From the NCBI GenBank assembly GCA_016840035.1, contig JAEOTC010000169.1:1-14206 (forward strand): DNA of 14,206 bases. Direction: 5' to 3'. The position numbers and the translations under genes are program-made. This DNA comes from Candidatus Hodarchaeota archaeon. GTDB lineage: Archaea; Asgardarchaeota; Heimdallarchaeia; Hodarchaeales; Hodarchaeaceae. Of the stretch, positions 1-14,206 are shown piece after piece. How positions within the stretch are numbered: the first letter of the stretch is position 1; each line of letters starts with the position of its first letter. The notes beneath the pieces were generated by a model. The model saw only the letters and a list, made by a program, of their open reading frames with translations. It was not told the DNA's origin and did not search any database.

Positions 1-841
1 AATACAATAATAGTCCTGATTTGTTGATGACCATAAGTTTACGTAATCGATGGAATTGTAATAATCCTAGCGGTGCACTGACATAGGCTCGATATATGAG
101 CAAACTTCCCACTATAACACTTATATGCGAAGCAAAGTGTTGTAAAAAGATATGAAATTCGGGTTGTACAGCATTTTCTAAGAATCTAGCACTCACAACA
201 ACAACTAAAGGGATAGCAAAAAAGAAAATTATTGACATTTGAAGCATCAAGGATTGAGTTTTTTGCTTTTTAAGTGTAATCTGACCTTTAATCTTCTGAA
301 GAGAGTAAATTGATACGATAATTACGTATCCTACAAAATAAGCAGCAGGAAAGTTGGTTGTATAAAGAAGAATAAGTACCGTTAGGAGGATGGCAAAAAG
401 ATCCTCAATATCTCGAACGAAACTTAACTCAGTTGTCATGATATCTGGGAATAAAACAGGATAAATCATATTAAGAAGGAAAGCTCCGAGGAATATTCCA
501 TAAATTGCCGCATGAATAGGTGAGACTTGATCTTTCCGAAAGAATTCAATAAAAAGAAGAAAAACTCCAGAAGATAACCCACCATATAAGGGGAATAGAT
601 AGTTAACAATATTGCCTTCATTTCGATAAAATTGGACGGGATCTCCAATATTTAGGATGTAAAAGAAGAATTCAAATCCTACGAAAGCAATAAAGGCCAA
701 ATATAAAGCTATTAATATTCCAATAACAGGAATTCTTGTTTCTCGCCATCTAGTTCTCAGAGATAAAATTAAAAAGATGGAAACACCTATCTCCAGTGAG
801 AAAATAATAAATCCTATTATACTAAGTGTTCCAAATGCCAT
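1..841 (-). CDS. 7-transmembrane protein with the start of a probable C-terminal longin/roadblock-like domain (partial; runs off the window's left edge)
   Basis: Not in the ORF track; translated by hand. ATG at 841-839 opens a frame with no stop to the edge (280 codons): MAFGTLSIIGFIIFSLEIGVSIFLILSLRTRWRETRIPVIGILIALYLAF...HISVIVGSLLIYRAYVSAPLGLLQFHRLRKLMVINKSGLLLY. About seven hydrophobic segments are followed by a hhhhNKSGLLLY beta-hairpin typical of longin N-termini. Purine-rich AGGAAGGG lies just upstream on the minus strand. Confidence 0.85.
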   Translation of the reverse strand, partial: MAFGTLSIIGFIIFSLEIGVSIFLILSLRTRWRETRIPVIGILIALYLAFIAFVGFEFFFYILNIGDPVQFYRNEGNIVNYLFPLYGGLSSGVFLLFIEFFRKDQVSPIHAAIYGIFLGAFLLNMIYPVLFPDIMTTELSFVRDIEDLFAILLTVLILLYTTNFPAAYFVGYVIIVSIYSLQKIKGQITLKKQKTQSLMLQMSIIFFFAIPLVVVVSARFLENAVQPEFHIFLQHFASHISVIVGSLLIYRAYVSAPLGLLQFHRLRKLMVINKSGLLLY

Positions 842-854
842 TTAGCGACCCTTC

Positions 855-870
855 CTACCTTTAAAGGTAG
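855..870. promoter_or_regulatory. Perfect 16-bp palindrome CTACCTTTAAAGGTAG, candidate operator/TATA element
   Basis: Exact self-complementary sequence with a TTTAAA centre, 14-29 nt upstream of the 841 ATG, in the divergent intergenic region. Confidence 0.5.
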
Positions 871-980
871 ATAAGCAGAAATAACCTCAGAATTCCGATA
901 AGAGGATTTTTTTCAAAGTTCTTAAACACTTGGAAATTATCTGTCTCCTTACATCAGAATCTAAATAGAAGAACAGAATA

Positions 981-1757
981 ATGACATCTTTTCTTTCTCA
1001 AATAGTTGAGGAAACACTTTCATACGAATCCAAGTATTCTAATCTTAAATTTGAATCCGTCGTTATTGGTATTCGGTACACCTGTGTACTTCTTTCTAAC
1101 GGGTCGTGTGGTGTAGCATATACATTAATTGACAACAAGGCAAAAAAAGAATCCCAAAAGAAGTATCTGTCGGAGAAATTTATTTCTGAGCAAGATCTTC
1201 CTACTGTGATGAATTATTGCACCTCAAAATTTTCTATATTCCGAAGTATCGGTATTGCGGCACTCAATGCATTTTCACAGGCAAATTTAATTATCGATAA
1301 GACGCAAGAAAATGAGTTGTTTAGCATTTTCTCAGAGAAATCAGGTACTGTAGGAATGATTGGAGATATACGCCCTATTACCCAATTTTTCGTCCAAAAG
1401 GGATTTAATATAAAATTACTTGATAAATCTTCCTCACCTAGCGACAATCCTCAAATAACATCGATTGATAATATTTTGGAACTAAAAAACTGCAATCATG
1501 TTATAGTATCGGGTTCGGCTCTTGTTTTTGAGAATTTTGATCTTATTCGTGACATTCTGCCCACTATTCAAGGTGAGCGCGTTCTCATTGGCCCATCTGC
1601 TCAAATCTTCCCCAAAATAGCCTTTAAACATGGTTTTACGTTCATTGGAAGTTCCAGAATTATTGATACAACCTCAACAGTGAGAGCAATCATGGAAGGA
1701 GGCGGATATCGTGCTTTTAAAGAATTTACACAGAAATACTCTTTTCGAGATATTTGA
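981..1757 (+). CDS. DUF364 family Rossmann-like protein (DUF4213/enolase-N-like domain + DUF364; putative heavy-metal chelation)
   Basis: Motifs VVIGIRYTCVLLSNGSCGVAYT, RSIGIAALNAFSQ, VGMIGDIRP, VIVSGSALV, LIGPSAQIFP, IMEGGG match the DUF364 pattern; 258 aa. Confidence 0.85.
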   Translation: MTSFLSQIVEETLSYESKYSNLKFESVVIGIRYTCVLLSNGSCGVAYTLIDNKAKKESQKKYLSEKFISEQDLPTVMNYCTSKFSIFRSIGIAALNAFSQANLIIDKTQENELFSIFSEKSGTVGMIGDIRPITQFFVQKGFNIKLLDKSSSPSDNPQITSIDNILELKNCNHVIVSGSALVFENFDLIRDILPTIQGERVLIGPSAQIFPKIAFKHGFTFIGSSRIIDTTSTVRAIMEGGGYRAFKEFTQKYSFRDI

Positions 1758-1841
1758 CTCTCCTGTTAGAATTTTGTCGAAAAGACCCAATAAGCGTTGA
1801 TGACACGCTTTAATCATTGTTGGCACTTTTCGATATCTCGA
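1740..1841. repeat. Cluster of CTTTTCGA / TCGAGATAT motifs, including a 9-bp inverted repeat
   Basis: TCTTTTCGA 1740-1748 and TCGAAAAGA 1777-1785 form an inverted pair. CTTTTCGA recurs at 1826-1833, overlapping the near-palindrome TCGATATCTCGA 1830-1841. Confidence 0.5.
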
Positions 1842-1904
1842 TGTATTATCTATCAACAGTTCCAATATCTTAATCACGACAGAAATAATTGGAAGATTTC
1901 ACTC

Positions 1905-2168
1905 ATGTCAGTAACGACTCAATTTGGATTCAAAAAGTCCTTAGACCGTCTAATGCAACTAGTATATATTTCATCGAACTTTTTCACCGACCTTGAGGTT
2001 CAAAACCAGGTTTGTGCACTGAATGTCAAAGATACCTATTCCGAATCCGAAAAAAATCAATTATTAACTTATTTTTTGGATTTAGTTGAATCTCTTTCCC
2101 TTGAAAGAATCTATCTCACTCAAGATCCCAATGATGAGAACCGTTATTTCTACAACGGAGGGTTTTGA
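1905..2168 (+). CDS. Small hypothetical protein (87 aa)
   Basis: The track starts this ORF at 1797, but the N-terminal extension looks non-coding. ATG at 1905 gives MSVTTQFGFKKSLDRLMQLVY...RYFYNGGF, a plausible helical protein with no recognised family. Confidence 0.6.
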   Translation: MSVTTQFGFKKSLDRLMQLVYISSNFFTDLEVQNQVCALNVKDTYSESEKNQLLTYFLDLVESLSLERIYLTQDPNDENRYFYNGGF

Positions 2169-2247
2169 CTTGTATTCAGATTACTATACTGTACCCAATA
2201 AGAAATCAACTCCCAAGAATGTGATACACTACTGGAAGGAACCCCGA

Positions 2248-2610
2248 ATGAGCACACAGAAGACAAATCAAAAATCGGTGGAAAAGCAAGAAAGAGAAGC
2301 CGAGGCCTCACGATTAGCTGATAGAGCACTGTTATTACTTTCATTCAAAGATACTCCAAGTCAAAATCTTCATCATGTATTACAAGTTTTGGGAATTCAT
2401 TCTATAGAAGAAAAGAAAAGTATCTTGCAAGAAATTTTCCGATTAATCCGAGAAGGTATTGTTTATGTACCCAAGGGTCTACCTTTGCTTATCGATCAGG
2501 GGATAGATAATCTTGATAACATCTCTGAAATCGATCTAGTCCTTCTCAAACCCTACGATCAGTTGATATCAGAAATTCAACGAGATATTTCCATTTTTAA
2601 CAATGGTTGA
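2248..2610 (+). CDS. Hypothetical protein with probable winged-helix domain (120 aa)
   Basis: The track's start at 2086 overlaps the previous gene; ATG 2248 is preceded by GGAAGGA (SD-like). The segment ADRALLLL...NLHHVLQVLG...EKKSILQEIFRLIREGIVYVPKG has the helix-helix-helix-wing pattern (LxxEGxhYxP) of MCM/RPA32 C-terminal-type winged helices. Confidence 0.65.
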   Translation: MSTQKTNQKSVEKQEREAEASRLADRALLLLSFKDTPSQNLHHVLQVLGIHSIEEKKSILQEIFRLIREGIVYVPKGLPLLIDQGIDNLDNISEIDLVLLKPYDQLISEIQRDISIFNNG

Positions 2611-2616
2611 TTCCTT

Positions 2617-3036
2617 ATGCAGAAGTTGAAGAAACTACCGTCTCAAAATTCTGAATTGATTAGTACAGCACAAATGAACGAACTTAAAATTCATTTAAGA
2701 TTATCAAATAGTATATGTGATGATACATTGACAGCTAAATGGCAACATATTCAACACATGATGATTGATTTAGACCTAGATCCTAAAATGAATATTAAAG
2801 AATTGGCACAGCTTTATTATAAATTTGAAGACTTAATTGAGGTTTTTAAGCTAAATTCTTACACTTTTCGCCAACTTGAGAAACTTTTGATAGAAATCGA
2901 AACGGTAAGGGATATGTTAGATAATTCACGCGATGTTCCCCTTCAACAACTTGTCTTCCAACTATCATCGTACGATATTCCATCATTAGGGGTGGGGAAT
3001 AACTCAATTCTAGAAAAACTCATGAAATATTATTAG
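2617..3036 (+). CDS. Hypothetical alpha-helical protein (139 aa)
   Basis: Clean ORF starting 6 nt after the previous stop; amphipathic helical pattern; no recognised motif. Confidence 0.7.
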   Translation: MQKLKKLPSQNSELISTAQMNELKIHLRLSNSICDDTLTAKWQHIQHMMIDLDLDPKMNIKELAQLYYKFEDLIEVFKLNSYTFRQLEKLLIEIETVRDMLDNSRDVPLQQLVFQLSSYDIPSLGVGNNSILEKLMKYY

Positions 3037-3049
3037 TACTGTCTCTTTC

Positions 3050-3093
3050 TTCGAGATATACTCATTGTCACCCGTTTTCATCCTTTTCGAGAT
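3050..3093 (+). repeat. Two further TTCGAGAT motif copies (TTCGAGATAT 3050-3059; CTTTTCGAGAT 3083-3093)
   Basis: Identical to 1744-1753 and 1741-1751 respectively. Confidence 0.5.
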
Positions 3094-3109
3094 CTATTCT
3101 GGGTATAAT

Positions 3110-3131
3110 TTTTGATATAATAATATCAAAA
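3110..3131. promoter_or_regulatory. Operator-like inverted repeat TTTTGATAT-AATA-ATATCAAAA
   Basis: Perfect 9-bp arms with a 4-nt spacer, about 59 nt upstream of the 3190 ATG. Confidence 0.5.
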
Positions 3132-3189
3132 GAATAAAAAATCCACTTATAGTTCAGATGTTTGATACAGAAAAACAAGGTCATTTATT

Positions 3190-4716
3190 ATGTCACTCCC
3201 TTTTTCCATTAATTCAGCTCGAGATTGGATAACTAACGTTCCATCTTTTCTCACCTCCCTTGAGGAATATTCTGATTTTGTAAGAAATGCAGGAGCAACA
3301 AGCTATCTTGCAAATACTCTTGTTCAAGTCTTTAATGAAGCGAAAGAAGAACTTCTGTTAACAATTTATTCTATTCTCAAAGAATCGTCTGATGTAGGAA
3401 AATTTGTTATGGTTCAAGTACTTTTAAATGCTACAAATATCTGGACTGATATAGTTCAGTCCGCACAGATAAAACCTGCATTAACAGCCCTTGCTCTCTC
3501 ACCAGACAAGCTGTATACCAAAGACGCTATACACTTATCTCAAAAACTTGAGGAAATGTCAACAGGGGACATAATCAAGGATAAGCTCGAGGACTCTATT
3601 TCAAATATGATCGAAGAAAGAAAAATGGAAAAATCCGCGCCAGAGCCCTTAAGAGACGATGTTTTCGGATCGAGTGCACCAGAAAAGAAGAAAGCAAAGA
3701 GAAGCATACCTCCTCCATCCCCTGAACCTACTCTACCACCCCCTTCTCCCCAACCAGCTCCAAAAGCAGCTCCACCTCCAGCAGCACCTGCTAGGGTATC
3801 TGAACCATCCCCTCCACCCCCCTCCGTATCAGTTGGTGCAAAAGCGGCAGGAGCAGCAAGATCCAGATCTGTAGAGAAGGAAATGTTTGATGAGGTAGAA
3901 GAGGAACTAGAAGCAGCTATGGAAGAACCTACACCTGCTGAAGAAGCTTTTGATGATCAAGCTATTGAGGATTTGAAGTTTGAGGAAGGAGCTACTCCAG
4001 TTTCAGGTACTCTTGGTATTGCACCTGGAGCTCCACCCCCAAAAAGTGTTTTCACGCATGTTCATTATTTCAATCGAATGAATTCCAGAAAAACTTACCC
4101 CTTCACAGTCTCATTATCCAGTGCTGCGAAGAAAGTGAGAGCTCGGAAGATGCATATCCTTTCGGGTGAAAGGGAAACAGAGAAACAGGCTGAATTTGAA
4201 CTTGATCATCTCACGAGGCAGATTATGGTAGAATTACTTATTTCTGGGTGTCTAGTACAACCTAACTTTCAGTATGTTGATCCTGATAATTTACCTGTCG
4301 AGCTAACCTTTTATATTACCCCACTTGTAGAAGCAGGGTATGCAGCTTCCAAGATTCAAGGACAGTTATTACTCAAGAATGATGTTGGAATCGTTCTTCA
4401 GAACCTTCCACTCTCGGATATTTTCGTTGTCAGTAATCGGATTTCTAAAATTGCGGCGCTTGTAGGTGCAATTGGAGGAGGAACACTACCTGCTCTTGAT
4501 TTTCTCTTTGGTGTTAATTTACAGGAGGCATTAACAGGTCAACTAGAATACACGGCTCCTGATATAGCAAGTTCCATCGATATCCGATCAATGATTACAG
4601 TAAGTCAAATTGCCATCTTTATTGTCTTTATCAGTATAGGATTACTTTGGTGGTGGCGTAAAGGACGATCTCGGCGCGCCCCTGAAGAAAAACTATCACT
4701 TAGTCTACCTCAATAG
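3190..4716 (+). CDS. Membrane-anchored hypothetical protein: helical N-domain, polyproline tract, acidic tract, beta-sandwich domain, two C-terminal TM helices
   Basis: 508 aa. Pro-rich PPPSPEPTLPPPSPQPAPKAAPPPAAP...SPPPPS (about 3709-3825). Acidic DEVEEELEAAMEEPTPAEEAFDD. Beta-rich HYFNRMNSRKTYPFTVSL...VELLISGCLVQP...LTFYITPL. Hydrophobic IAALVGAIGGGTLPALDFLFGV and IAIFIVFISIGLLWWW followed by basic RKGRSRR. Confidence 0.85.
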   Translation: MSLPFSINSARDWITNVPSFLTSLEEYSDFVRNAGATSYLANTLVQVFNEAKEELLLTIYSILKESSDVGKFVMVQVLLNATNIWTDIVQSAQIKPALTALALSPDKLYTKDAIHLSQKLEEMSTGDIIKDKLEDSISNMIEERKMEKSAPEPLRDDVFGSSAPEKKKAKRSIPPPSPEPTLPPPSPQPAPKAAPPPAAPARVSEPSPPPPSVSVGAKAAGAARSRSVEKEMFDEVEEELEAAMEEPTPAEEAFDDQAIEDLKFEEGATPVSGTLGIAPGAPPPKSVFTHVHYFNRMNSRKTYPFTVSLSSAAKKVRARKMHILSGERETEKQAEFELDHLTRQIMVELLISGCLVQPNFQYVDPDNLPVELTFYITPLVEAGYAASKIQGQLLLKNDVGIVLQNLPLSDIFVVSNRISKIAALVGAIGGGTLPALDFLFGVNLQEALTGQLEYTAPDIASSIDIRSMITVSQIAIFIVFISIGLLWWWRKGRSRRAPEEKLSLSLPQ

Positions 4717-4757
4717 CCAATTACAATCTTTATAGGATCTCCTAAGTAACTAGATGA

Positions 4758-5609
4758 ATGCCTATGACCTTTCGTACTGGAATTACCATCCAAGCTATTG
4801 GTGACTTAACTCCATCCAATGTCGTTGATCTTGCCATGGCCATCAATCTCAGACATATAGAATTTGATCCTTCCGTTTTTTCGGACATCACAAGAGTCAT
4901 TGAAAGATTGAATTCTGACCAAACCACAATCCATGCTCCTTACATGGAAGATTACAAAATGGATCTTTCATCTCAAACTCCTGAAATTGATAAGCTAATT
5001 GAGGACATTAATCACTGGCAAACAAGGATGAATATCATAGGTGTGGTAGTCCATCCCCCCCTTGACGCAGGAGGAGACATGGGGAAATTCTATGATCGTC
5101 TAGACCTCCTACCCCTTCCATTACTTGAAAATATGCCGTATCAAACATGGGAGGATTTCTTGGAATTTTTTGATACAATTAAGTCTAATGTGAATAATCC
5201 GTTGGGAATGTGTTTTGATATTCCTCATTCCTTCATAACAAACGGTGATCAGTTTCTTGAAGTCCCAAAGGAGGTACATAACCATTTATCTTCAGCAAAT
5301 GGTTATATTCATATTTCTGGAGGAACGGCAGAAGAAGATACTCATTATCCTTTATTAACTGAAGGGAATATGCCATTCCAAGAAGTTCCAGCTTTTCTAG
5401 ACCGAATAGCATTCAAGGGAACGGTAACTATGGAACTGTATCCCCGTTCATTCCAGGACATAGATAAAATCCTTCGCTCATACATTATGATGCTTGGGAT
5501 ATCCAAAAGAAGGATGCATAAGCTTTCTGTTCAGATTAAACGTCCATTTATTATGCGAAGAATCAATAACCTTGCGAAAACTAAACAACTCCCCTCTCAG
5601 AAAAGCTAG
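4758..5609 (+). CDS. Sugar phosphate isomerase/epimerase / AP endonuclease family 2 (xylose isomerase-like TIM barrel) metalloprotein
   Basis: Characteristic motifs TIHAPY, VVVHP, LLENMP, CFDIPH, YIHISG, DTHYPL..G, GTVTMEL. Confidence 0.85.
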   Translation: MPMTFRTGITIQAIGDLTPSNVVDLAMAINLRHIEFDPSVFSDITRVIERLNSDQTTIHAPYMEDYKMDLSSQTPEIDKLIEDINHWQTRMNIIGVVVHPPLDAGGDMGKFYDRLDLLPLPLLENMPYQTWEDFLEFFDTIKSNVNNPLGMCFDIPHSFITNGDQFLEVPKEVHNHLSSANGYIHISGGTAEEDTHYPLLTEGNMPFQEVPAFLDRIAFKGTVTMELYPRSFQDIDKILRSYIMMLGISKRRMHKLSVQIKRPFIMRRINNLAKTKQLPSQKS

Positions 5610-5616
5610 GTAGTTT

Positions 5617-6129
5617 TTATCTACTCGGTTCTTCAAAAAGACTCGTACCGAATACATTCTTAATTTTCTCCGATCTTGGTAACATATAACCAATATATAT
5701 GGGAAGAAATAATAATAGATATAATAGTAGAAAATCAATATTAATTTGAGGATGGTAGAGCTGAGTAATGAGAAATAATAGAACAACTGATCCAAGATAA
5801 TAGAATTGGACTATTGTTCGCATTACACCTTGGACAAACCAATGAATAGGTAGATGCTTATTATGAAAGATGAAGTAATAATAACTTCCTAAAGAATAGA
5901 GAAATAATGTGACCCCTACTAGACAGCTACCAGCAAAACCAGATAACATGGATATTTTTCTCGCATAGATCATACCAGAGGAAAAAAGAAGAGACCAAAA
6001 TATTATACCAGCAATCATAAGCCCGTATCCCAACGTAAGAACTCCTAGTGCTCTTTGAATTTGAACTGGCTCTTGAGCACTAATTTTTTCCATTACGTTT
6101 TCGATTTCTTTTTTGTCCATTTCCTCCAC
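5617..6129 (-). CDS. Four-TM hypothetical membrane protein
   Basis: 170 aa with four hydrophobic segments; start is either GTG 6129 or ATG 6120. Confidence 0.75.
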   Translation of the reverse strand: MEEMDKKEIENVMEKISAQEPVQIQRALGVLTLGYGLMIAGIIFWSLLFSSGMIYARKISMLSGFAGSCLVGVTLFLYSLGSYYYFIFHNKHLPIHWFVQGVMRTIVQFYYLGSVVLLFLITQLYHPQINIDFLLLYLLLFLPIYIGYMLPRSEKIKNVFGTSLFEEPSR

Positions 6130-6230
6130 GGGAAGAAAAATTCATTAAGTCTTAGGTAGAGACAGTAAGATACCTTTTGGACAAACGAGTTCAAGAATTT
6201 TCTGATCGTGGCAGTTTAACGGTGGTCAGT

Positions 6231-7895
6231 GTGACGGTTCCTACTTCAACCCCTTGGTGGAAAAAATCAGTTTTTTATCAGATTTATCCCAGATCGTATT
6301 CTGATAGTACAAATAATGGAATAGGTGATCTTCGAGGAATTATCAACAAAATAAGAGGAGGATATTTAACAAAACTAGGTATTGATGCGATTTGGCTATC
6401 TCCCATGTATCCATCCCCACAAGAAGATTTTGGATATGATATTACGGATTTTAATGCAATTAATCCAGAATATGGAACAATGGATGACTTTGATGAACTG
6501 CTTGAAGTATTACACGCGAATAATATAAAAATCATTCTCGATATGGTTTTGAATCATACCTCACATAAACACAAATGGTTTAAACAATCAAAAACAAGTC
6601 TTACGAATCCCAAACGTGAATGGTACGTTTGGAAAAAGGGGAAGGGAAAGCATGGTAAATCACCTCCTAACAATTGGAAGGCAATTATTGGTGGATCCGC
6701 CTGGGAGTGGGATGAAACCACAGAGGAATTTTACCTTCACCAATTTCTTCCCTGCCAACCTGACCTTAACTGGCAAAATTCTGAAGTAAAAAAAGCAATG
6801 TTTAATTCTATGAAGTTCTGGCTAGACAAAGGTGTTGATGGGTTTCGACTGGATATCATTCACACAGTTTTCGAAGATACGCAATTTCGTGATAATCCCA
6901 GAAGTATATATCTTCTTCCATCTCATTTACGTCTTGATTCGCTTTTTCAGAATCCGATTTTCACTCAATTTTTACCTGAGACCGTTGATCTTTGTGTCGA
7001 TCTCCGTTCACTTGTTGACAACTACAATCCTGAAAGAGTTTTGATTGGTGAAGCTGCGGGTGGGCCCGAAATTATTTCTCCGCTATATGGAACTCCAGAA
7101 AAATCAGGATTAAATCTTGTTTTTGATTTCCAATTTGCAAACCAATCTTTTTCGTCAAAGAAATTTAAAAATTCGATTCTTGATTCAATAACTCATTTGA
7201 ATGACTTTTGGCCCTGTTATACCTTCTCAAATCATGATACTGTGAGAATGATTTCACGATATGGAAATAGTGAGAAAAAAGCAAGAGTTCTTACACTTTT
7301 ACTATTAACAGTCAGAGGAACTCCTGTAATCTATCAAGGAGAAGAAATTGGTATGCATCAGGGGAAAATACCACGAAACAAAGTAGTTGATCCGATAGGA
7401 AAATGGAAAATATGGGGTTTACCACTTGGTAGGTTCTTTGGAAGGGATGGATGTCGAACACCATTTCAATGGACTAACTCAAAGATCAACGCTGGATTCT
7501 CATCAAATCCAGATGTGAAACCTTGGTTGCCAATATCTTCAAATTTCCAAAAGATAAATGTGGAATCACAGGAAAAAAATGAGTATTCCATGTTTAATTT
7601 CTATCGAGAGTTATTACGATTTAGACACGAGAATGAATGGCTCCAGGAGGGGAAAATGGAATTTATAGAAACACAATCAAAACATTGTTTAGCTTTCTCT
7701 AGAAATCTAGGACCTAATTCAGGCATGGTTATCCTGAATTTTCATAAAAAGCCAATCCGAATTATAAATCCCTTTTTGAATTCAGAAAAAGTATTTTCAA
7801 CAGATACTTTATCACATTCAAAAGTATTGGAAAAGTACATTACTGTAAACAGGTATGAAGGGATTATTATTCAAAAGAAGAGCTTTCGTGATTGA
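6231..7895 (+). CDS. GH13 alpha-glucosidase (oligo-1,6-glucosidase/maltase-like group)
   Basis: WWKKSVFYQIYPRSY, DFGYD, DMVLNHTS, QPDLNW, catalytic GVDGFRLD, IGE and SNHD, plus YQGEEIGM and GRDGCRTPFQW. Likely start is GTG 6231 after GGTGG rather than the track's TTG 6177. No signal peptide. Confidence 0.93.
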   Translation: MTVPTSTPWWKKSVFYQIYPRSYSDSTNNGIGDLRGIINKIRGGYLTKLGIDAIWLSPMYPSPQEDFGYDITDFNAINPEYGTMDDFDELLEVLHANNIKIILDMVLNHTSHKHKWFKQSKTSLTNPKREWYVWKKGKGKHGKSPPNNWKAIIGGSAWEWDETTEEFYLHQFLPCQPDLNWQNSEVKKAMFNSMKFWLDKGVDGFRLDIIHTVFEDTQFRDNPRSIYLLPSHLRLDSLFQNPIFTQFLPETVDLCVDLRSLVDNYNPERVLIGEAAGGPEIISPLYGTPEKSGLNLVFDFQFANQSFSSKKFKNSILDSITHLNDFWPCYTFSNHDTVRMISRYGNSEKKARVLTLLLLTVRGTPVIYQGEEIGMHQGKIPRNKVVDPIGKWKIWGLPLGRFFGRDGCRTPFQWTNSKINAGFSSNPDVKPWLPISSNFQKINVESQEKNEYSMFNFYRELLRFRHENEWLQEGKMEFIETQSKHCLAFSRNLGPNSGMVILNFHKKPIRIINPFLNSEKVFSTDTLSHSKVLEKYITVNRYEGIIIQKKSFRD

Positions 7896-7902
7896 TCGAA
7901 TC

Positions 7903-9015
7903 TTATTCCAAATTAAATTCTTCCCCGAACGATAGGTACCCACCATATTTAGCATGAATGGCACAGGTTCCTTCAGAACCAACCATACATGGACCTACAG
8001 GGTTTTCGGGTGTACATTTATTATTAAAAAGACCACAATCACGAGGATATATTTTGCCAAGAATAACATCCGCGCATCGACACCCTTTTGGGATATCCCG
8101 ACCTTCAGACGGAGGAATATCTTCTTTCACCCGAATATTATACTCACTGAATTGATTAGCAAGCTCAAGACCTGAATTTTCGACCATTCCTATCCCTCGC
8201 CATTGAGAATCTACAGTCGTATAGGCATTATCAATCGCTTCTAACGCCTTTAAATTCCCTTCTCGGGTCACTACACGAGTATAAAGATTCTCAGTTTTGG
8301 GTTGATTTTGAATTAGTTGCTGCATGATCTCAAGGATACCAAACATCACATCTGCGGGTTCAAAGCCTGCAACTACGATGGGAATTTTATGTTCGTGGGA
8401 AAGAGGCTCATAAATACCAAAACCAGTGATAGCTGATACATGTCCGGGTGCAATAAAACCGTCGACACCAATCTCTGGTTGTCCAACCAATAATTTCATC
8501 GCTGGTGGTACTAATCGATGTGAAGATAGTATTGACACATTCGATGGAATTTGCTGATTTAATAATTCGATTGCCACCATGGGGGCAGTGGTTTCAAACC
8601 CAATGGAGAAAAAAACATATTTCACTGACGGGTTTTTCTTTGCTAAACGTATAACATCCAAAAAACTATATACGACTTGTATAGACGCTCCCTCAGCCCT
8701 TGCAGTCAACAAAGATCCTTGATTGCTAGGAACTCTCGACATATCTCCGAATGTTGTCAATGTGTAGCCATTTTTTGAAAGCCAGATGGCTTGCTCAATG
8801 TCTTCATTAGGGCAAATACAAACAGGACAACCTGGTCCGGCAATTACTTCTACATTTGCTGGTAATAAGGATCGAATCCCCCAATGAGAAATTGTATATT
8901 CATGTGTTCCACATACATGGCAAATTTTGATCTTTTTATCCCCCAATTCTAAGGCAAGAGCAGAAATTTTCTTGCCTAGGGTCTTAACGATTTCAGGGTC
9001 TTGATAAGATTTCAT
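7903..9015 (-). CDS. hypD: [NiFe]-hydrogenase maturation protein HypD
   Basis: All HypD signature motifs present: CGTHE, GPGCPVC, GFETT, PGHVS and the C-terminal 4Fe-4S Cys cluster GCRC...C...C..PVGPCMVGSEGTC. Confidence 0.97.
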   Translation of the reverse strand: MKSYQDPEIVKTLGKKISALALELGDKKIKICHVCGTHEYTISHWGIRSLLPANVEVIAGPGCPVCICPNEDIEQAIWLSKNGYTLTTFGDMSRVPSNQGSLLTARAEGASIQVVYSFLDVIRLAKKNPSVKYVFFSIGFETTAPMVAIELLNQQIPSNVSILSSHRLVPPAMKLLVGQPEIGVDGFIAPGHVSAITGFGIYEPLSHEHKIPIVVAGFEPADVMFGILEIMQQLIQNQPKTENLYTRVVTREGNLKALEAIDNAYTTVDSQWRGIGMVENSGLELANQFSEYNIRVKEDIPPSEGRDIPKGCRCADVILGKIYPRDCGLFNNKCTPENPVGPCMVGSEGTCAIHAKYGGYLSFGEEFNLE

Positions 9016-9047
9016 TAAATGCCGAGCTCTCCTAACTATCCTCAGTG

Positions 9048-9061
9048 TTTAAGTACTTAAA
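9048..9061. promoter_or_regulatory. Palindromic back-to-back TATA boxes (TTTAAGTACTTAAA) for divergent hypD and GNAT genes
   Basis: Perfect 14-bp palindrome giving TTTAAGTA on both strands, roughly 30-40 nt upstream of each start codon (9015 and 9087). Confidence 0.55.
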
Positions 9062-9086
9062 GAAGCTTCAGGCTAGATGGAAGATA

Positions 9087-9563
9087 ATGGATTCAATTTC
9101 AATTAGAAAAGCCACTATTTCTGATGTACCTTCATTGGTACGGTTACGACGCTTAATGTTTGAATCAATGGGACATAAAAATCCCGAATTATTGGAAGCT
9201 GGTGATATAGCAGCAGCAGGATTTTTTAAACAATTTATTCCCACAAAGGAGTATCAGGGATGGGTTGCGGAGGATTCCACAACAGGAGAAATTGTGAGTA
9301 ATATTGGAGCTGTAATTGATCACCATCCACCAGGGCCAAACAATTTAACGGGAAAAATTGCTTATTTGATGAATCTATGCACTTTGGAGGAGTATCGACG
9401 ACAGGGGATTGCCCGAAAACTACTTGAAGCCGCTTTGGAATGGGCTAAAGGAATGAAAGTAAGTAGAGTATCATTACATGCCACTGAGATAGGAAGGGAC
9501 CTTTATGAGCAATTGGGATTCACCCAAACTAATGAAATGCGTCTTAAGTTTGAAAAAAGCTGA
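9087..9563 (+). CDS. GNAT family N-acetyltransferase
   Basis: MDSISIRKATISDVPSL start (ATG 9087); acetyl-CoA motif A MNLCTLEEYRRQGIARKLL; motif B VSLHATEIGRDLYEQLGF. Confidence 0.92.
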   Translation: MDSISIRKATISDVPSLVRLRRLMFESMGHKNPELLEAGDIAAAGFFKQFIPTKEYQGWVAEDSTTGEIVSNIGAVIDHHPPGPNNLTGKIAYLMNLCTLEEYRRQGIARKLLEAALEWAKGMKVSRVSLHATEIGRDLYEQLGFTQTNEMRLKFEKS

Positions 9564-9585
9564 AAGGAATATGTTTCAAGTGATT

Positions 9586-10953
9586 CTATTGCAGTTTTTT
9601 CTCCAAATAGTCAGTAAGAGCAGTTAAATCGTCTTTGGAGAAAGATTTTACTTCCATTTTCTTTTTCTTGAAAGGTGACTCATCACCAAGAATAACAATT
9701 TCTTCGTATGAATCTTGAGAAAGGGCTTCTTCGATGCCAACGACAAACGAATCTTGAAATACGGGTTCTAAATCGGTTTGAGGGGGAATTGCAATTAAGA
9801 TACGCTTATTTTTTCCAGAAAGTGAAATCTGTATCCCATTATTACGCTGAAGAGCACCAATTGTAAATCCTTTAATTTTTCCAAGATTTTTCTTAATCTT
9901 TTTACTATATTCAGTCAAAAATTTATGATTTTTCCCAAGCTCCTTCAAGATAGGTGCTTTCTTTTCTTCCGTAACACCAGCCAGCCATTTTATTGCTTCA
10001 CGAGGATTTCCATGCGAATATGCATAAGCGGATTCAATATCAGATTTGCCTAAAGGCCATGTTGAATTTTCTTCTGTTAAGGTAAGATCGAATTTCTGAT
10101 GAAAATCTTTTAACATGTGTATACAGTAGTCTTGAATGTCTTTTTTTGTAAAACGTTTGAGTAATATTGGAGGTTCAATACGACTCTGAACAGCTGTGCT
10201 GGATAGGTCAAGAATCTTATCCCACAATGTTGCTAAGCATGCAAGGCAAAGAACAAAATTACTAGCTTCATTATGCATTTTTTTAATGCTTTCTAACAAT
10301 TGTAGTTCAGCTTCGGGCCCAAGAGCAATAAATAACGATTCTAGTTCATCAACAAAGAAAATCAAAGGCCTATCAACAGATTTCAAAATCACCTGCAAGG
10401 CCGCGAATGCTAGCTCTTCATCATCCATAATTGTTCTATTAAAGGATTTAGTCTCCTCATCCAGATCGAAACCTGTAAACCATTTTAATGCTAATTTAGA
10501 TTGCTTAGGATCCTTTAAAGCAAAAAATCCTTCGATCACTACGTTTCCAAGGCCAGGAAATTCAAATGCTGCATTCTCAACCTTCTTGTATTTCTCTACA
10601 AGATAATCTGCCACAAATTCTAGAAGAGCTGATCCTCCAGCCTTAACAGTTTCAAAATAGAAATGAGAATATATTCTATTGGGATTAGTAGGAACTGGAA
10701 CATAAACTACGTAAGCATTCGTAATCTGTTCGCGAACAACCCAATAAAAATGAGTTTTACCATAGCCAGCTTCAGCTATGACTGGAACGATCATTGATTC
10801 CCTCTTCTGTTTTCTTACTGTCTCCAAAGCATGAGAAATTCTATTTATGGCATCCTTATTAGGGCGGATCAAATTGAAAATTTCTGGTACATCTGCTCGA
10901 GCAGTGAAATTATGAAATGGGTTCTCAATAATTAGATTAGTTACTTGAGTCAT
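9586..10953 (-). CDS. AAA+ ATPase, Cdc6/Orc1- or BrxD(DUF2791)-like clade, resembling the ATPases partnered with cyanobacterial RcaD (RcaG-like)
   Basis: N-terminal NPF; Walker A variant IAEAGYGKTH (10779-10750); Walker B LIFFVDELES; arginine-finger-like VQSRIE; sensor-II-like GNPREAIK; extra C-terminal alpha/beta domain of about 100 aa. Confidence 0.85.
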   Translation of the reverse strand: MTQVTNLIIENPFHNFTARADVPEIFNLIRPNKDAINRISHALETVRKQKRESMIVPVIAEAGYGKTHFYWVVREQITNAYVVYVPVPTNPNRIYSHFYFETVKAGGSALLEFVADYLVEKYKKVENAAFEFPGLGNVVIEGFFALKDPKQSKLALKWFTGFDLDEETKSFNRTIMDDEELAFAALQVILKSVDRPLIFFVDELESLFIALGPEAELQLLESIKKMHNEASNFVLCLACLATLWDKILDLSSTAVQSRIEPPILLKRFTKKDIQDYCIHMLKDFHQKFDLTLTEENSTWPLGKSDIESAYAYSHGNPREAIKWLAGVTEEKKAPILKELGKNHKFLTEYSKKIKKNLGKIKGFTIGALQRNNGIQISLSGKNKRILIAIPPQTDLEPVFQDSFVVGIEEALSQDSYEEIVILGDESPFKKKKMEVKSFSKDDLTALTDYLEKKLQ

Positions 10954-10959
10954 TTTAAT

Positions 10960-11427
10960 CTAGGCCTCGAATATTAAATAGTAAAATACGCCTGTACCTG
11001 TATCGGATGTAATACCTCCATACCCTGCGTGCGATTTGGACATTGCTGTCTGTAAAGTTAGTACCCCTTGATCATGAAAAGATAGAACTTTTTTATCAAA
11101 GTACGGATCAGAGATCCGTTTTTCGGCTAGCTTTTCACGGATCTCTGGAATACGAACTAATGGTTTCATCGGGGTCGCAAGGGAGGTATATGCTTTTCGT
11201 AAAAGGGATAAAAATTGTTTATCACTCAGTTCGGTTTTCATCGGTTTTTGACCATTAAGATACTTCTCTCCCATGTTCGTTAAACAATATACGCTTTTTG
11301 TCCCTTTTTTAAGTTGAATCAGTCCTTTATCGGAAAGATCAGTCAATAAGCTCTTCTCATTTTCCGTTCTAGCGTAGTAACCAGTGTCTCCAAGAAAATG
11401 GATGATTTCGAGGTACGAAGTATGCAT
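10960..11427 (-). CDS. Tandem winged-helix DNA-binding protein, RcaD-like
   Basis: First wHTH: KSLLTDLSDKGLIQL...VYCLTNMGEKYL. Second domain: LSDKQFLSLLRKAY...LVRIPEIREKL..ISDPYFDKKVLSFHDQGVLTL...GI....G.FYYL. This matches, from recollection, the RcaD C-terminal pattern (SDEEIL...LPIFHLRQKL..LSRDELD.ALY.L...D.IEL...GI....GG.LFFI). Ends 6 nt upstream of the ATPase ATG. Confidence 0.75.
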   Translation of the reverse strand: MHTSYLEIIHFLGDTGYYARTENEKSLLTDLSDKGLIQLKKGTKSVYCLTNMGEKYLNGQKPMKTELSDKQFLSLLRKAYTSLATPMKPLVRIPEIREKLAEKRISDPYFDKKVLSFHDQGVLTLQTAMSKSHAGYGGITSDTGTGVFYYLIFEA

Positions 11428-11451
11428 AGTTACTAGTTAATGGGGGGAATT

Positions 11452-11477
11452 ATATTTGAGAATCATATTTAGGAATC
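11452..11477. repeat. 13-bp tandem repeat ATATTTGAGAATC / ATATTTAGGAATC
   Basis: Two adjacent copies, 11/13 identical, overlapping a TATA-like AAATATAAT (minus strand) about 25 nt upstream of the wHTH gene. Confidence 0.5.
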
Positions 11478-11571
11478 ATCAGGATAATATATTTTTATTA
11501 AACATTGGGGGCAAATTAATGAAAGGGGGATAAACCGAGCTGATTAATGACTGAACTCGTGGTTTTTTTAC

Positions 11572-12696
11572 ATGATTCTTGACGATTTACAGAAAATCTC
11601 TGGTTTAGATACTGACGACATGTTTGGGACGATGTTTTCCTGGCCTAGTTTAATTGAAACCATTATAAATAGTTCAATTGAGATTAAAACAAATGTTTCA
11701 GTAGGTAAATTTCATCTATCCTATACAAAACCCATATCGAGTATTCTAATTTGTGGGATGGGTGGATCCGCAGTAAGTGGAGATTATATTGCCACATATT
11801 TTGCCAAAACTCTTTCTCAACCGATACTTGTGCAACGAAATTATTCTCTGCCTAAATTTGTGTCTACGAACACTCTTGTTATAGCAATCTCATATTCAGG
11901 CAACACAGAGGAAACACTTGCTGGAATTAGGAAAGCCGTCCAGGTTGAATGTCCACTAGTTTGTATTGGAAGTGGGGGAAAGGTAGAAGATTTTTGTGTA
12001 AAAAACCGGATTCCATTCTTCAAAATTCCATCTGGAAATCAACCTCGTGCATCATTTCCATTATTATTATTTCCGATTCTAAAAATTCTTGGTGCTATGA
12101 GCATCGCAAAATTAGATGAAAATGTTATACAAGAGGTTATTCGTAATCTAAAGACAATGCGAGAACTCATACGGCCTCAAACTCCAACCTCCGAAAATCA
12201 AGCAAAACAAATCGCTGAAAGACTATTCAACCATATTCCCATAATTTGGTCCCCGTATTATTGCGTAGCTAATCGGTTTAAATGTCAAATAAATGAGAAT
12301 TCAAAGCAGCTTGCGATTGCAGAGGAATTACCTGAATTCAACCATAATCATATTGTCGGTTTTCAGAAGCTTATCAAAGAAAATCCTCATATAGTAGTAA
12401 TTTTTCGGTTTCCTTCCGAACATGCCAATGTTTCCCTTCGATTCGAAATTTCTAAGGAAATTGTTGAACCAAAGGTGGAGATACTAGAAATTCAAATCCA
12501 ATCTGGTGATTTACTTAGCCAACTCGTTACGGCAACTTACATTGGAGATTATATCTCAATATACCTGGCTTTACTCAACAACCAAAATCCGAATACGGTA
12601 GACAGCATTGATTTTCTTAAAGAACAGATGGAAAAGCGGGGAAAAACGCAATCTTCATTGATGAGTGAATTAGATAAATTATCATCAAGCGAATAA
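11572..12696 (+). CDS. pgi/pmi: Bifunctional phosphoglucose/phosphomannose isomerase (PGI/PMI, SIS fold)
   Basis: GMGGSAVSGD, SYSGNTEET, QPRAS, RFKCQINENSK and ELPEFNHNHI motifs. Confidence 0.93.
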   Translation: MILDDLQKISGLDTDDMFGTMFSWPSLIETIINSSIEIKTNVSVGKFHLSYTKPISSILICGMGGSAVSGDYIATYFAKTLSQPILVQRNYSLPKFVSTNTLVIAISYSGNTEETLAGIRKAVQVECPLVCIGSGGKVEDFCVKNRIPFFKIPSGNQPRASFPLLLFPILKILGAMSIAKLDENVIQEVIRNLKTMRELIRPQTPTSENQAKQIAERLFNHIPIIWSPYYCVANRFKCQINENSKQLAIAEELPEFNHNHIVGFQKLIKENPHIVVIFRFPSEHANVSLRFEISKEIVEPKVEILEIQIQSGDLLSQLVTATYIGDYISIYLALLNNQNPNTVDSIDFLKEQMEKRGKTQSSLMSELDKLSSSE

Positions 12697-12771
12697 CGGA
12701 AAAAGCAAACAAAAAAACTATAGTGAAATTTTGAAAGTCTTAGTTATCGCTGTATAGGAAAGATTTCAGAT

Positions 12772-14127
12772 ATGACCACTAATTATGACGTAGTAATCAC
12801 AGGTGCAGGAACCGCAGGCAGTATGGCGGCAGCTGCCCTTGCAAATAAGGGCCTTAAAGTTGCTTTGTTAGACAGACAACCAAAAGAAAAAATTGGAGTT
12901 AAAATTTGTGGCGATGCTACAAGTGGTGAACATTTCAAACGTATTCAGGACATAACCAAGGTCGATCCTCCCAAAGGAGATGAAGTAATTCAAAAGGTTG
13001 CTGGTGCTTGGTTATACTCTCCAGATCGAGAAGTGAAGCTCGAACTTGTTGAGGAAGGAGGGACAGGTATAATCATTGATCGATTTAAACTCGGTATGAG
13101 AATTCTGGACAATGCAATTGACTTTGGGGCCGAGCTGTTTGATGAATCGATGGTTAAAGAACCAATAATCACCGATGATTATGTTACTGGAATAAAGTAT
13201 CGGGGAAAGGATAAAAACATCCATGAGATGACAGGAAAAGTTATTATTGATGCCTCAGGGATCATCGGAGTTCTGAGAACGAAACTTAATCCCAATAAGA
13301 CATTTATGGATCTCGAGCTGGCACCAAAGGATGTATGTAATTGTTATCGGGAAATCCGTGATGTGGAACCTGAAATTGAATCCCCTGAATTTATTAGACT
13401 CATTTTTGATCAAGATGTTGCGAAGGGTGGATATATTTGGGAATTCCCGCGAGGGCCGCATTCTATGAACGCAGGGCTAGGAGTTATGCGGATAAATAAA
13501 ATGAATCCCCATAAACAGTTTGATGTATTCATTGAGCAGAGAAAAGAACTTTATGAGAACTCCAAATTAGTTCATGGAGGGGCATGGCGAGTACCACTAA
13601 GACGTCCTCAAGATAATCTTGTATGGAATGGCTTCATGCTTATTGGTGATTCTGGTACACAAGTCAAACCAACCGACGGTGGTGGAATAGGGATATCAGT
13701 AAATGCGGCAGCAATGGCTAGTAAAACTATTGTATCAGCATTAGAAAATGATAATGTTTCGATGGATGGTCTATGGGATTATAATGTCCAATTCATGCGC
13801 TCTATAGCTCCCATCAATGCTCCACTCGCAATCATGAAAGATTTTGTGATTCCCCTTCCTAGTTCGATTCTTAATGAAATTTTCCATAAAGAAATTTTGA
13901 CAGGTGACGACTTGCTCTATGGAAATGCTTCAGGAAATATTTCCAGTGGATTTATGGTCAACCTAGTGCGCGCATGGCGTGGGAAGAGAATTTTAGGAAC
14001 TTTATTTAAGTTCAGAGGAATTCTTAAACAAATGGATAGAGCTAGAACACTATACGAGAATTTTCCAGACAATTCAGAAGATTTTCAACCTTGGCGTTCC
14101 GAAATCATGAATATCTATGGTGATTAA
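12772..14127 (+). CDS. ggr: Geranylgeranyl reductase family FAD-dependent oxidoreductase (digeranylgeranylglycerophospholipid reductase-like)
   Basis: YDVVITGAGTAG FAD-binding motif, KICGDA, GGYIWEFP (YxWxFP) and IGDSGTQVKPTDGGGI. Confidence 0.88.
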   Translation: MTTNYDVVITGAGTAGSMAAAALANKGLKVALLDRQPKEKIGVKICGDATSGEHFKRIQDITKVDPPKGDEVIQKVAGAWLYSPDREVKLELVEEGGTGIIIDRFKLGMRILDNAIDFGAELFDESMVKEPIITDDYVTGIKYRGKDKNIHEMTGKVIIDASGIIGVLRTKLNPNKTFMDLELAPKDVCNCYREIRDVEPEIESPEFIRLIFDQDVAKGGYIWEFPRGPHSMNAGLGVMRINKMNPHKQFDVFIEQRKELYENSKLVHGGAWRVPLRRPQDNLVWNGFMLIGDSGTQVKPTDGGGIGISVNAAAMASKTIVSALENDNVSMDGLWDYNVQFMRSIAPINAPLAIMKDFVIPLPSSILNEIFHKEILTGDDLLYGNASGNISSGFMVNLVRAWRGKRILGTLFKFRGILKQMDRARTLYENFPDNSEDFQPWRSEIMNIYGD

Positions 14128-14142
14128 ATCTCCATAGACTAA

Positions 14143-14153
14143 TTCTTCTTTTT
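14143..14153 (+). terminator. Pyrimidine/oligo-T tract, possible archaeal terminator
   Basis: TTCTTCTTTTT about 15 nt after the GGR stop. Confidence 0.35.
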
Positions 14154-14206
14154 CAGAGAAATAAATCACTTATTTGTCTTAATTCAGGGGGACAGACCTG
14201 CAGATT

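Follow-up and report, generated by a model that had tools for sequence, protein, structure and literature searches.

The longin-domain proteins TRAPPC4/Trs23 (synbindin) and TRAPPC1/Bet5 are soluble ~20-kDa subunits of the multi-subunit transport protein particle (TRAPP) complex, which acts in Rab exchange; a TRAPP core subunit of the Trs23/TRAPPC4 type is about 140-220 aa long and matches the Sybindin profile. The same fold occurs in the sigma and mu N-terminal domains of the adaptor protein (AP) complexes, in zeta- and delta-COP, in Sec22b and VAMP7, and in the tri-longin guanine nucleotide exchange factors (GEFs) Mon1-Ccz1 and Fuzzy-Inturned. A different arrangement is described here for a gene at the left end of a 14,206-nt stretch of DNA (the window) from a Candidatus Hodarchaeota archaeon (assembly GCA_016840035.1, contig JAEOTC010000169.1, positions 1 to 14,206). 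Its product, termed 7TM-longin, is with certainty a 393-aa membrane protein in which a bundle of seven transmembrane (TM) helices is directly joined to a cytoplasmic longin tail of the TRAPPC4/Trs23-sigma-adaptin type.

Unlike the soluble TRAPP subunits, the longin domain of this protein is the C-terminal tail of a membrane protein, and none of the other eukaryotic longins listed above is fused to a polytopic membrane domain. To our knowledge there is no eukaryotic 7TM-longin fusion. The longins of SNAREs have the reversed order, with an N-terminal longin domain followed by a single C-terminal TM helix. Membrane-anchored longins are themselves a known kind; the longin domain described here belongs to a previously undescribed membrane-receptor fusion. 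A functional analogy is offered by the lysosomal SLC38A9-Ragulator-Rag system, where a polytopic sensor is coupled to a roadblock/longin platform controlling small GTPases. In that system sensor and platform are made as separate polypeptides: an 11-TM transporter does the sensing, and roadblock heterodimers form the platform. The analogy does not extend to amino-acid sensing or Rag binding.

Asgard archaea possess dozens of small GTPases, longin and roadblock domains, and how these are recruited to membranes and controlled without obvious endomembranes is an open question. An earlier annotation made from the letters alone (the sequence-only reading) had referred to an Asgard expansion of longin/roadblock domains; the expansion is documented, and the host of the window is an Asgard archaeon (Hodarchaeales). 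7TM-longin shares both phylum and domain superfamily with the soluble and fused longin-roadblock proteins of this group. The two main sources (10.1101/2020.10.19.343400; PMC10933270) describe the expansion as massive, with many lineage-specific fusions, including GTPase-longin proteins and longin with two-component domains, and the Ras-longin fusion in one frame as a known Asgard architecture. In the portions available of Liu et al. 2021 (10.1101/2020.10.19.343400) and Tran et al. 2024 (PMC10933270), asCOG tables aside, the 7TM-longin fusion is not mentioned. A full-text literature search combining longin domain, 7TM and archaea found no paper, although the family may already have a cluster number in the asCOG tables. 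Among the '7TM proteins' and GPCR-like clusters (GPCR, G-protein-coupled receptor) of Asgard archaea that appear in recent structure-based surveys, no longin fusion is mentioned.

Gene structure and completion across two contigs

The window corresponds to contig C137 of a metagenome-assembled genome (MAG) of 4.3 Mb in 293 contigs, estimated to be 87% complete. The list of open reading frames (ORFs) contained the 280-codon minus-strand frame that the sequence-only reading had claimed, starting with an ATG at 841 and open at the left window edge. An in-frame TAA lies immediately 5' of this ATG. Both motifs quoted at the time were confirmed: HIFLQHFASH spans residues 230-239, and RLRKLMVINKSGLLLY, encoded by window 49..2, spans residues 265-280. 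The first 127 nt of C137 were found at one other place only, in reverse complement where the 3.7-kb contig C225 begins, and this unique overlap is the signature of an assembly break at k=127. On C225 the frame went on for 113 codons to a stop at L002:466-468, 393 aa in total; the leftward extension suggested earlier was thus borne out, with no early stop past the edge. The two parts of the gene are as follows.

2..841, minus strand: 7TM-longin gene, codons 1-280 of 393 (ORF list, contig overlap, continuation and protein P0001)
C225, L002:128-468, plus strand of L002: last 113 codons and stop of the 7TM-longin gene, outside the window (frame continuation)

P0001, a 393-aa protein encoded on a 1.6-kb contig of a different assembly, differed from the joined C137+C225 product by Q226H alone, and an uninterrupted gene was found at 12 genomic loci in other MAGs. 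The unique overlap, the near-identical P0001 and the 12 intact loci together indicate that the join is real and the gene complete. Frame, length and start were kept in 20 full-length orthologues (46-85% identity), which makes the frame a conserved gene rather than an ORF that arose by chance; it is under purifying selection. The split over two contigs of a fragmented MAG could by itself suggest a chance ORF or a chimeric join. Against such an artefact, besides the uniqueness of the 127-nt overlap and the one-residue difference from P0001, stand the 12 intact loci and hundreds of full-length matches across the phylum, and on this evidence an artefact has practically no probability and is already refuted.

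Seven-helix bundle and longin tail

A structural model was built with AlphaFold2 from alignment A2, which comprises 104 rows of full-length family members. The model had a mean pLDDT of 87.4 and a pTM of 0.81 and consisted of seven long helices followed by strands and helices in the order bbabbbaa. With 20 rows the pLDDT fell to 69.7, and topology and secondary-structure order were unchanged. The elements encoded within the window, all taken from the model together with the evidence given in brackets, were:

737..829, minus strand: TM1, residues 5-35, running from outside to inside and ending in the conserved cytoplasmic R31-[W/Y]32 (conservation, charge alternation)
653..730, minus strand: TM2, residues 38-63
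533..610, minus strand: TM3, residues 78-103 (conservation)
452..520, minus strand: TM4, residues 108-130
281..400, minus strand: TM5, residues 148-187, long, with a kink at T162-N163-F164-P165 (charge alternation)
182..271, minus strand: TM6, residues 191-220
80..163, minus strand: TM7, residues 227-254, with H230, H235 and H239 subfamily-specific and no lysine (conservation)
2..49, minus strand: start of the longin domain (beta1, NKSG turn, beta2), which covers residues 265-392 and is completed on C225

The mean number of Lys plus Arg residues across the 104 members was 0.09 at the N-terminus, 3.13, 0.38, 2.02, 0.46, 4.50 and 0.49 in the successive loops and 2.67 after TM7, the richest being the Lys-rich cytoplasmic loop 181-198 after TM5. 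This clean alternation indicates seven TM helices with the N-terminus outside and the C-terminus inside. The count of about seven in the sequence-only reading therefore agrees with both the model and the charge pattern, and the helices and charges together correspond to a GPCR-type topology. With a median N-terminus of 6 residues and outer loops of 13-16 residues, there is almost no extracellular domain.

Conservation was highest in the longin tail (0.43), followed by the cytoplasmic halves of the TM helices (0.36) and their outer halves (0.26). The sites conserved family-wide lay at cytoplasmic helix ends, namely R31-[W/Y]32, F97-x-[E/D]99-x-F101, G245, Y253 and Q262. The most conserved TM motif was the cytoplasmic end of TM3, with F97, F101 and an acidic residue at position 99 in 85 of the 104 members; G245 and Y253 mark the cytoplasmic end of TM7. 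The family alignment revealed no conserved polar or charged network in the membrane core. The suggestion that polar residues of TM7 form a ligand or metal site did not hold for the family: H235 and H239 were invariant in the 20 close orthologues but shared by only roughly a quarter of the wider family. A family-wide site made by this histidine pair was ruled out, the pair being subfamily-specific.

No curated Pfam family matched the bundle in 7TM-longin or the 104 relatives, and in the same set no match was found to the GPCR families or to 7TMR-DISM_7TM and HisKA_7TM. Weak Pfam matches to Hpre_diP_synt_I, TgpA_N, PalH and DUF5985 were not taken as homology, and matches of A2 to the photosystem II D2 profile (E ~1e-3, bias 6) were dismissed as matches of hydrophobic composition to TM helices. 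Profile matches to GPCRs of the PDB reached E 0.03-0.15 only, and by eye no DRY or NPxxY motif was seen. In the fold search the whole bundle, all seven helices included, grouped with GPCRs and rhodopsins, although fold does not separate the 7TM classes. An Atlas feature search with the TM part gave a lead of 0.86, under the 0.9 mark, to a cluster with HisKA_7TM in 10% of its members. In the fold comparison called for by the sequence-only reading, the tail matched longins, the TM part grouped with GPCRs and rhodopsins without discriminating between them, and no HisKA_7TM profile match was obtained. By sequence or profile, 7TM-longin is a member neither of the GPCRs nor of the microbial rhodopsins nor of the 7TMR-DISM/HisKA_7TM receptors.

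A further reading takes the protein as a retinal-binding relative of microbial rhodopsins with an added tail. As the sequence-only reading had observed, the Schiff-base lysine is missing: residues 227-254 contain no Lys, and at every column of TM7 at most 6 of the 104 members carry one. There was also no Bac_rhodopsin match in Pfam, and GPCRs scored equally well. The absent lysine effectively refutes this reading, which is considered very improbable.

The tail of the model comprised strands E266-273 and E278-283, helix H292-313, strands E320-322, E327-332 and E336-342, and helices H347-370 and H376-390. The resulting order, beta-beta-alpha-beta-beta-beta-alpha-alpha, is that of longin domains and lacks the N-terminal helix of roadblocks. 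G276 of the NKSG turn was kept in 99% of the family. When the 104-row model was searched with Foldseek, the top 50 matches were longin or roadblock proteins throughout, with yeast Trs23 at rank 1, followed by AP-2 and AP-1 sigma (TMt 0.63-0.70), zeta-COP, TRAPP subunits, Mon1-Ccz1 and Sec22b (0.67). Alignments to longins covered 125-170 columns (TMt 0.53-0.70) compared to only about 85 columns for roadblocks, and the tail superposed on solved longin domains over most of its length. In a profile search of the PDB, the single non-membrane match was Trs23 residues 3-48 on the NKSG hairpin (E 0.27 with alignment A1, 0.03 with A2).

Sequence profiles gave a weaker signal. Per-member Pfam scans of the 104 relatives produced matches to Sybindin in 13 (best E 0.0025), Robl_LC7 in seven and Fuz_longin_1 in six, all below the gathering score. 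The gathering cut-offs of Sybindin (PF04099), Fuz_longin_1 (PF19036) and Robl_LC7 (PF03259) were thus not reached by any of them, 7TM-longin itself had no match to these families, and its ORF was not matched in genome-wide scans with PF04099 and PF19036. Compared with TRAPPC4/Trs23, the tail shows 13% identity and lacks the PDZ-like insert. Judged by the fold of the model, the tail is a longin domain most similar to the sybindin type, although it falls outside every curated sequence family and is no TRAPP subunit. The candidate identity of a TRAPP core subunit, as a Trs23/TRAPPC4 orthologue, was rejected on the grounds that the domain ends a 7TM protein of 393 aa and that its Sybindin score is below the cut-off. 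From 15 visible residues the sequence-only reading had proposed a longin-like domain of the Trs23/sybindin type, and the completed tail has that fold and not that of a PAS or kinase domain. Its label of a eukaryote-signature architecture stood in part: the longin fold is eukaryote-like, but the phrase was overstated given the sub-threshold Pfam scores and the lack of a known eukaryotic counterpart. A homodimer co-fold of two copies of residues 258-393 with A2 scored 0.25 against a mark of 0.42, which counts neither way.

Family, distribution of the tail and proposed function

The N-terminal 280 aa retrieved 31 proteins, nearly all of 390-399 aa and none with a Pfam domain; those named were all from Hodarchaeales or Promethearchaeota. 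An exhaustive HMMER search with the C-terminal 155 aa retrieved 113 cluster representatives (50% identity), most of them 350-410 aa long and matched at the C-terminus. Named family members came from Hodarchaeota, Heimdallarchaeota and Odinarchaeota, and all carried the database label 'hypothetical protein'. The A2 profile matched 292 of 301 sampled genomes of the phylum, including all 90 of high quality, at E <= 1e-10, and full-length matches were present in many families of the phylum.

Within its own genome, 7TM-longin has full-length paralogues on C36, C98 and C69 and a weaker one on C227, making four to five copies. Around the C36 paralogue (C36:6480-10553, L003) the gene order is a Ras/Roc-family GTPase (182 aa), a YjeF_N protein, 7TM-longin and a leucine-rich repeat (LRR) protein of 291 aa, the last lying directly upstream of the paralogue on the same strand. 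About 25 further ORFs have only the C-terminal longin-like domain, about 30 in total. The same tail ends a major facilitator superfamily (MFS) transporter of 552 aa (C11:33180-34838, minus strand), a CbiA/ParA-like (ParA/MinD-like) ATPase of 414 aa (C68:5269-6513, plus), three tetratricopeptide repeat (TPR) proteins of ~740 aa (C246:355-2568, minus; C262:6445-8658, plus; C40:5663-7900, minus) and a HerA/DUF87-like ATPase of 872 aa (C28:141701-144319, minus), as well as several more proteins of 563-1458 aa without a Pfam domain. Judged by this distribution, the longin tail behaves as a portable docking module. A separate observation concerns P0057 (1276 aa; cluster member P0145, 1708 aa; 1.36-Mb contig), which has no TM helix and in which a stretch of the tail (query 101-147) was matched seven times; it may be a repeat protein made from part of the longin fold or a low-complexity match.

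7TM-longin is tentatively read as a membrane sensor or anchor whose longin tail docks or regulates a small GTPase, probably as a dimer. The sequence-only reading had likewise put forward a sensor that would regulate a GTPase and be analogous in function to a GPCR; its structural part was borne out, whereas the function stays a hypothesis. The protein would be a membrane-embedded receptor or anchor presenting a longin platform at the inner membrane face. The variable outer half of the bundle may sense a small ligand, a lipid or the state of the membrane, and the conserved cytoplasmic helix ends (R31-[W/Y]32, F97-x-[E/D]99-x-F101, G245, Y253 and Q262) would couple sensing to the tail. The tail, probably acting as a homodimer or as a heterodimer with paralogues, would dock one of the cell's many Ras-superfamily GTPases, possibly as an exchange factor or a GTPase-activating platform. 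So arranged, 7TM-longin would resemble a one-polypeptide version of the eukaryotic systems in which a membrane sensor is joined to a longin/roadblock platform.

A GTPase platform is suggested because the role of longin and roadblock dimers as platforms for GTPases is established (Levine 2013, cited in PMC10933270) and because of the conservation gradient and the expansion of paralogues. The combination of sensor and platform is further supported by the presence of the tail on MFS, ParA-like, TPR and HerA modules, by a single ORF (C11:6862-7824, minus strand) with a Ras-family and a longin-like domain in one frame, and by 61 Ras-family (PF00071) matches in the same genome, which are available as candidate partners. 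Genomic linkage adds no support. Among the 30 longin-like loci of the genome, four had a Ras gene within 1.5 kb compared to 1.55 expected under random placement (P ~0.06), and proximity at 0.5, 3 and 5 kb was not significant. The orthologues of 7TM-longin had no conserved GTPase neighbour; a Ras-like gene lay within 6 kb at three of the 12 orthologous loci, in varying positions, where about two would be expected by an estimate from gene density. This lack of synteny is expected, since in Asgard archaea the genes for GTPases and those for longin or roadblock proteins generally do not share operons (PMC10933270).

The same missing linkage, both in the genome itself and at the 12 loci, would also fit a tail that is a structural or adaptor subunit, tethering a cytoplasmic non-GTPase complex (TRAPP-like, coat-like or cytoskeletal) with the 7TM part mainly as an anchor. 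Analogues would be sigma-adaptin and zeta-COP in coats, the longin domains of SNAREs and the SRX domain of the signal recognition particle receptor. The Foldseek matches to AP sigma and zeta-COP equal those to GEF-type longins, and the tail recurs promiscuously at the C-terminus of TPR scaffolds and ATPases. However, one or two helices suffice for an anchor, and seven helices with conserved cytoplasmic ends and a diversifying outer half exceed that need; the adaptor role is held to be rather unlikely. A transporter, channel or enzyme is less probable again. The longin tail, a profilin-like alpha/beta domain, would then be regulatory or ligand-sensing in the manner of GAF/PAS-type folds, and the tail of the MFS transporter described above speaks for it, together with weak Pfam matches of single members to families resembling small transporters (Hpre_diP_synt_I in 7 of 104, best E 1.4e-4). 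For 7TM-longin, however, no match to a transporter or enzyme family was significant, the fold search placed the bundle with GPCRs and rhodopsins, and the membrane core has no conserved polar or charged network.

Returning to the sensor or anchor with a GTPase-docking tail, a bolder form of it can be stated, although it is doubtful: an archaeal single-polypeptide switch from receptor to small GTPase, in which a GPCR/rhodopsin-type sensor is wired to a TRAPP-type longin platform for exchange or docking and paralogue heterodimers recruit particular Rab/Arf/Rag-like GTPases to membrane patches. Such a switch, if true, would be a pre-eukaryotic prototype of signal-controlled membrane identity. A pan-Asgard multi-copy family with a TRAPP-like longin hard-wired to a receptor-type bundle offers a concrete, expressible membrane entry point into the GTPase network. 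Binding of a GTPase by the tail would show that GTPase platforms anchored in the membrane are older than eukaryotes, and would provide a defined pair for structural and biochemical work; if it binds none, a further non-GTPase use of the longin fold is indicated. In both cases a domain-level annotation becomes available for a large family that at present carries just the label 'hypothetical protein'.

Neighbouring genes and further observations

The genes flanking 7TM-longin and those in the remainder of the window were assigned as follows.

981-1757, plus strand: DUF4213/DUF364 gene, upstream of and divergent from 7TM-longin (Pfam)
C225, L002:599-1408, plus strand: Mrp/NUBPL Fe-S P-loop ATPase, downstream of 7TM-longin (Pfam)
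4758-5609, plus strand: xylose-isomerase-like TIM barrel
6177-7895, plus strand: alpha-amylase
7903-9015, minus strand: hydrogenase maturation protein HypD
9045-9563, plus strand: GNAT acetyltransferase
11572-12696, plus strand: bifunctional-type phosphoglucose isomerase (SIS)
12772-14127, plus strand: geranylgeranyl reductase-like flavoprotein

No Pfam family was found for the ORFs at 2617-3036, 3190-4716 (508 aa), 5617-6129 and 10960-11427. The DUF364 and Mrp/NUBPL arrangement and the whole 12-kb region were collinear in four relatives (about 80% identity). The collinearity was absent in eight orthologues of 43-48% identity, which instead adjoin an aldo-keto reductase, a luciferase-like monooxygenase, GNAT, a 2-hydroxyacid dehydrogenase, a CoA transferase or a PAS histidine kinase. 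Synteny with DUF364 and Mrp/NUBPL was accordingly rejected as a functional clue, being only phylogenetic inertia that is lost in distant orthologues, and the neighbourhood of unrelated metabolic genes says nothing about the function of 7TM-longin.

Two plus-strand ORFs at 1797-2168 and 2086-2610 (123 and 174 aa), also without a Pfam family, overlap by ~80 nt. Both ORFs (about 80-87%) and their overlap were kept in four relatives. The arrangement could reflect a mis-called start of the second ORF, a genuine overlap or a frameshift.

Between the divergent 7TM-longin and DUF364 genes, a 19-nt element at window 912-930 (AGTGTTTAAGAACTTTGAA, minus strand) was nearly invariant in five related loci whose flanks vary. 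The element is a candidate for a shared promoter (TATA/BRE-like) or for an operator.
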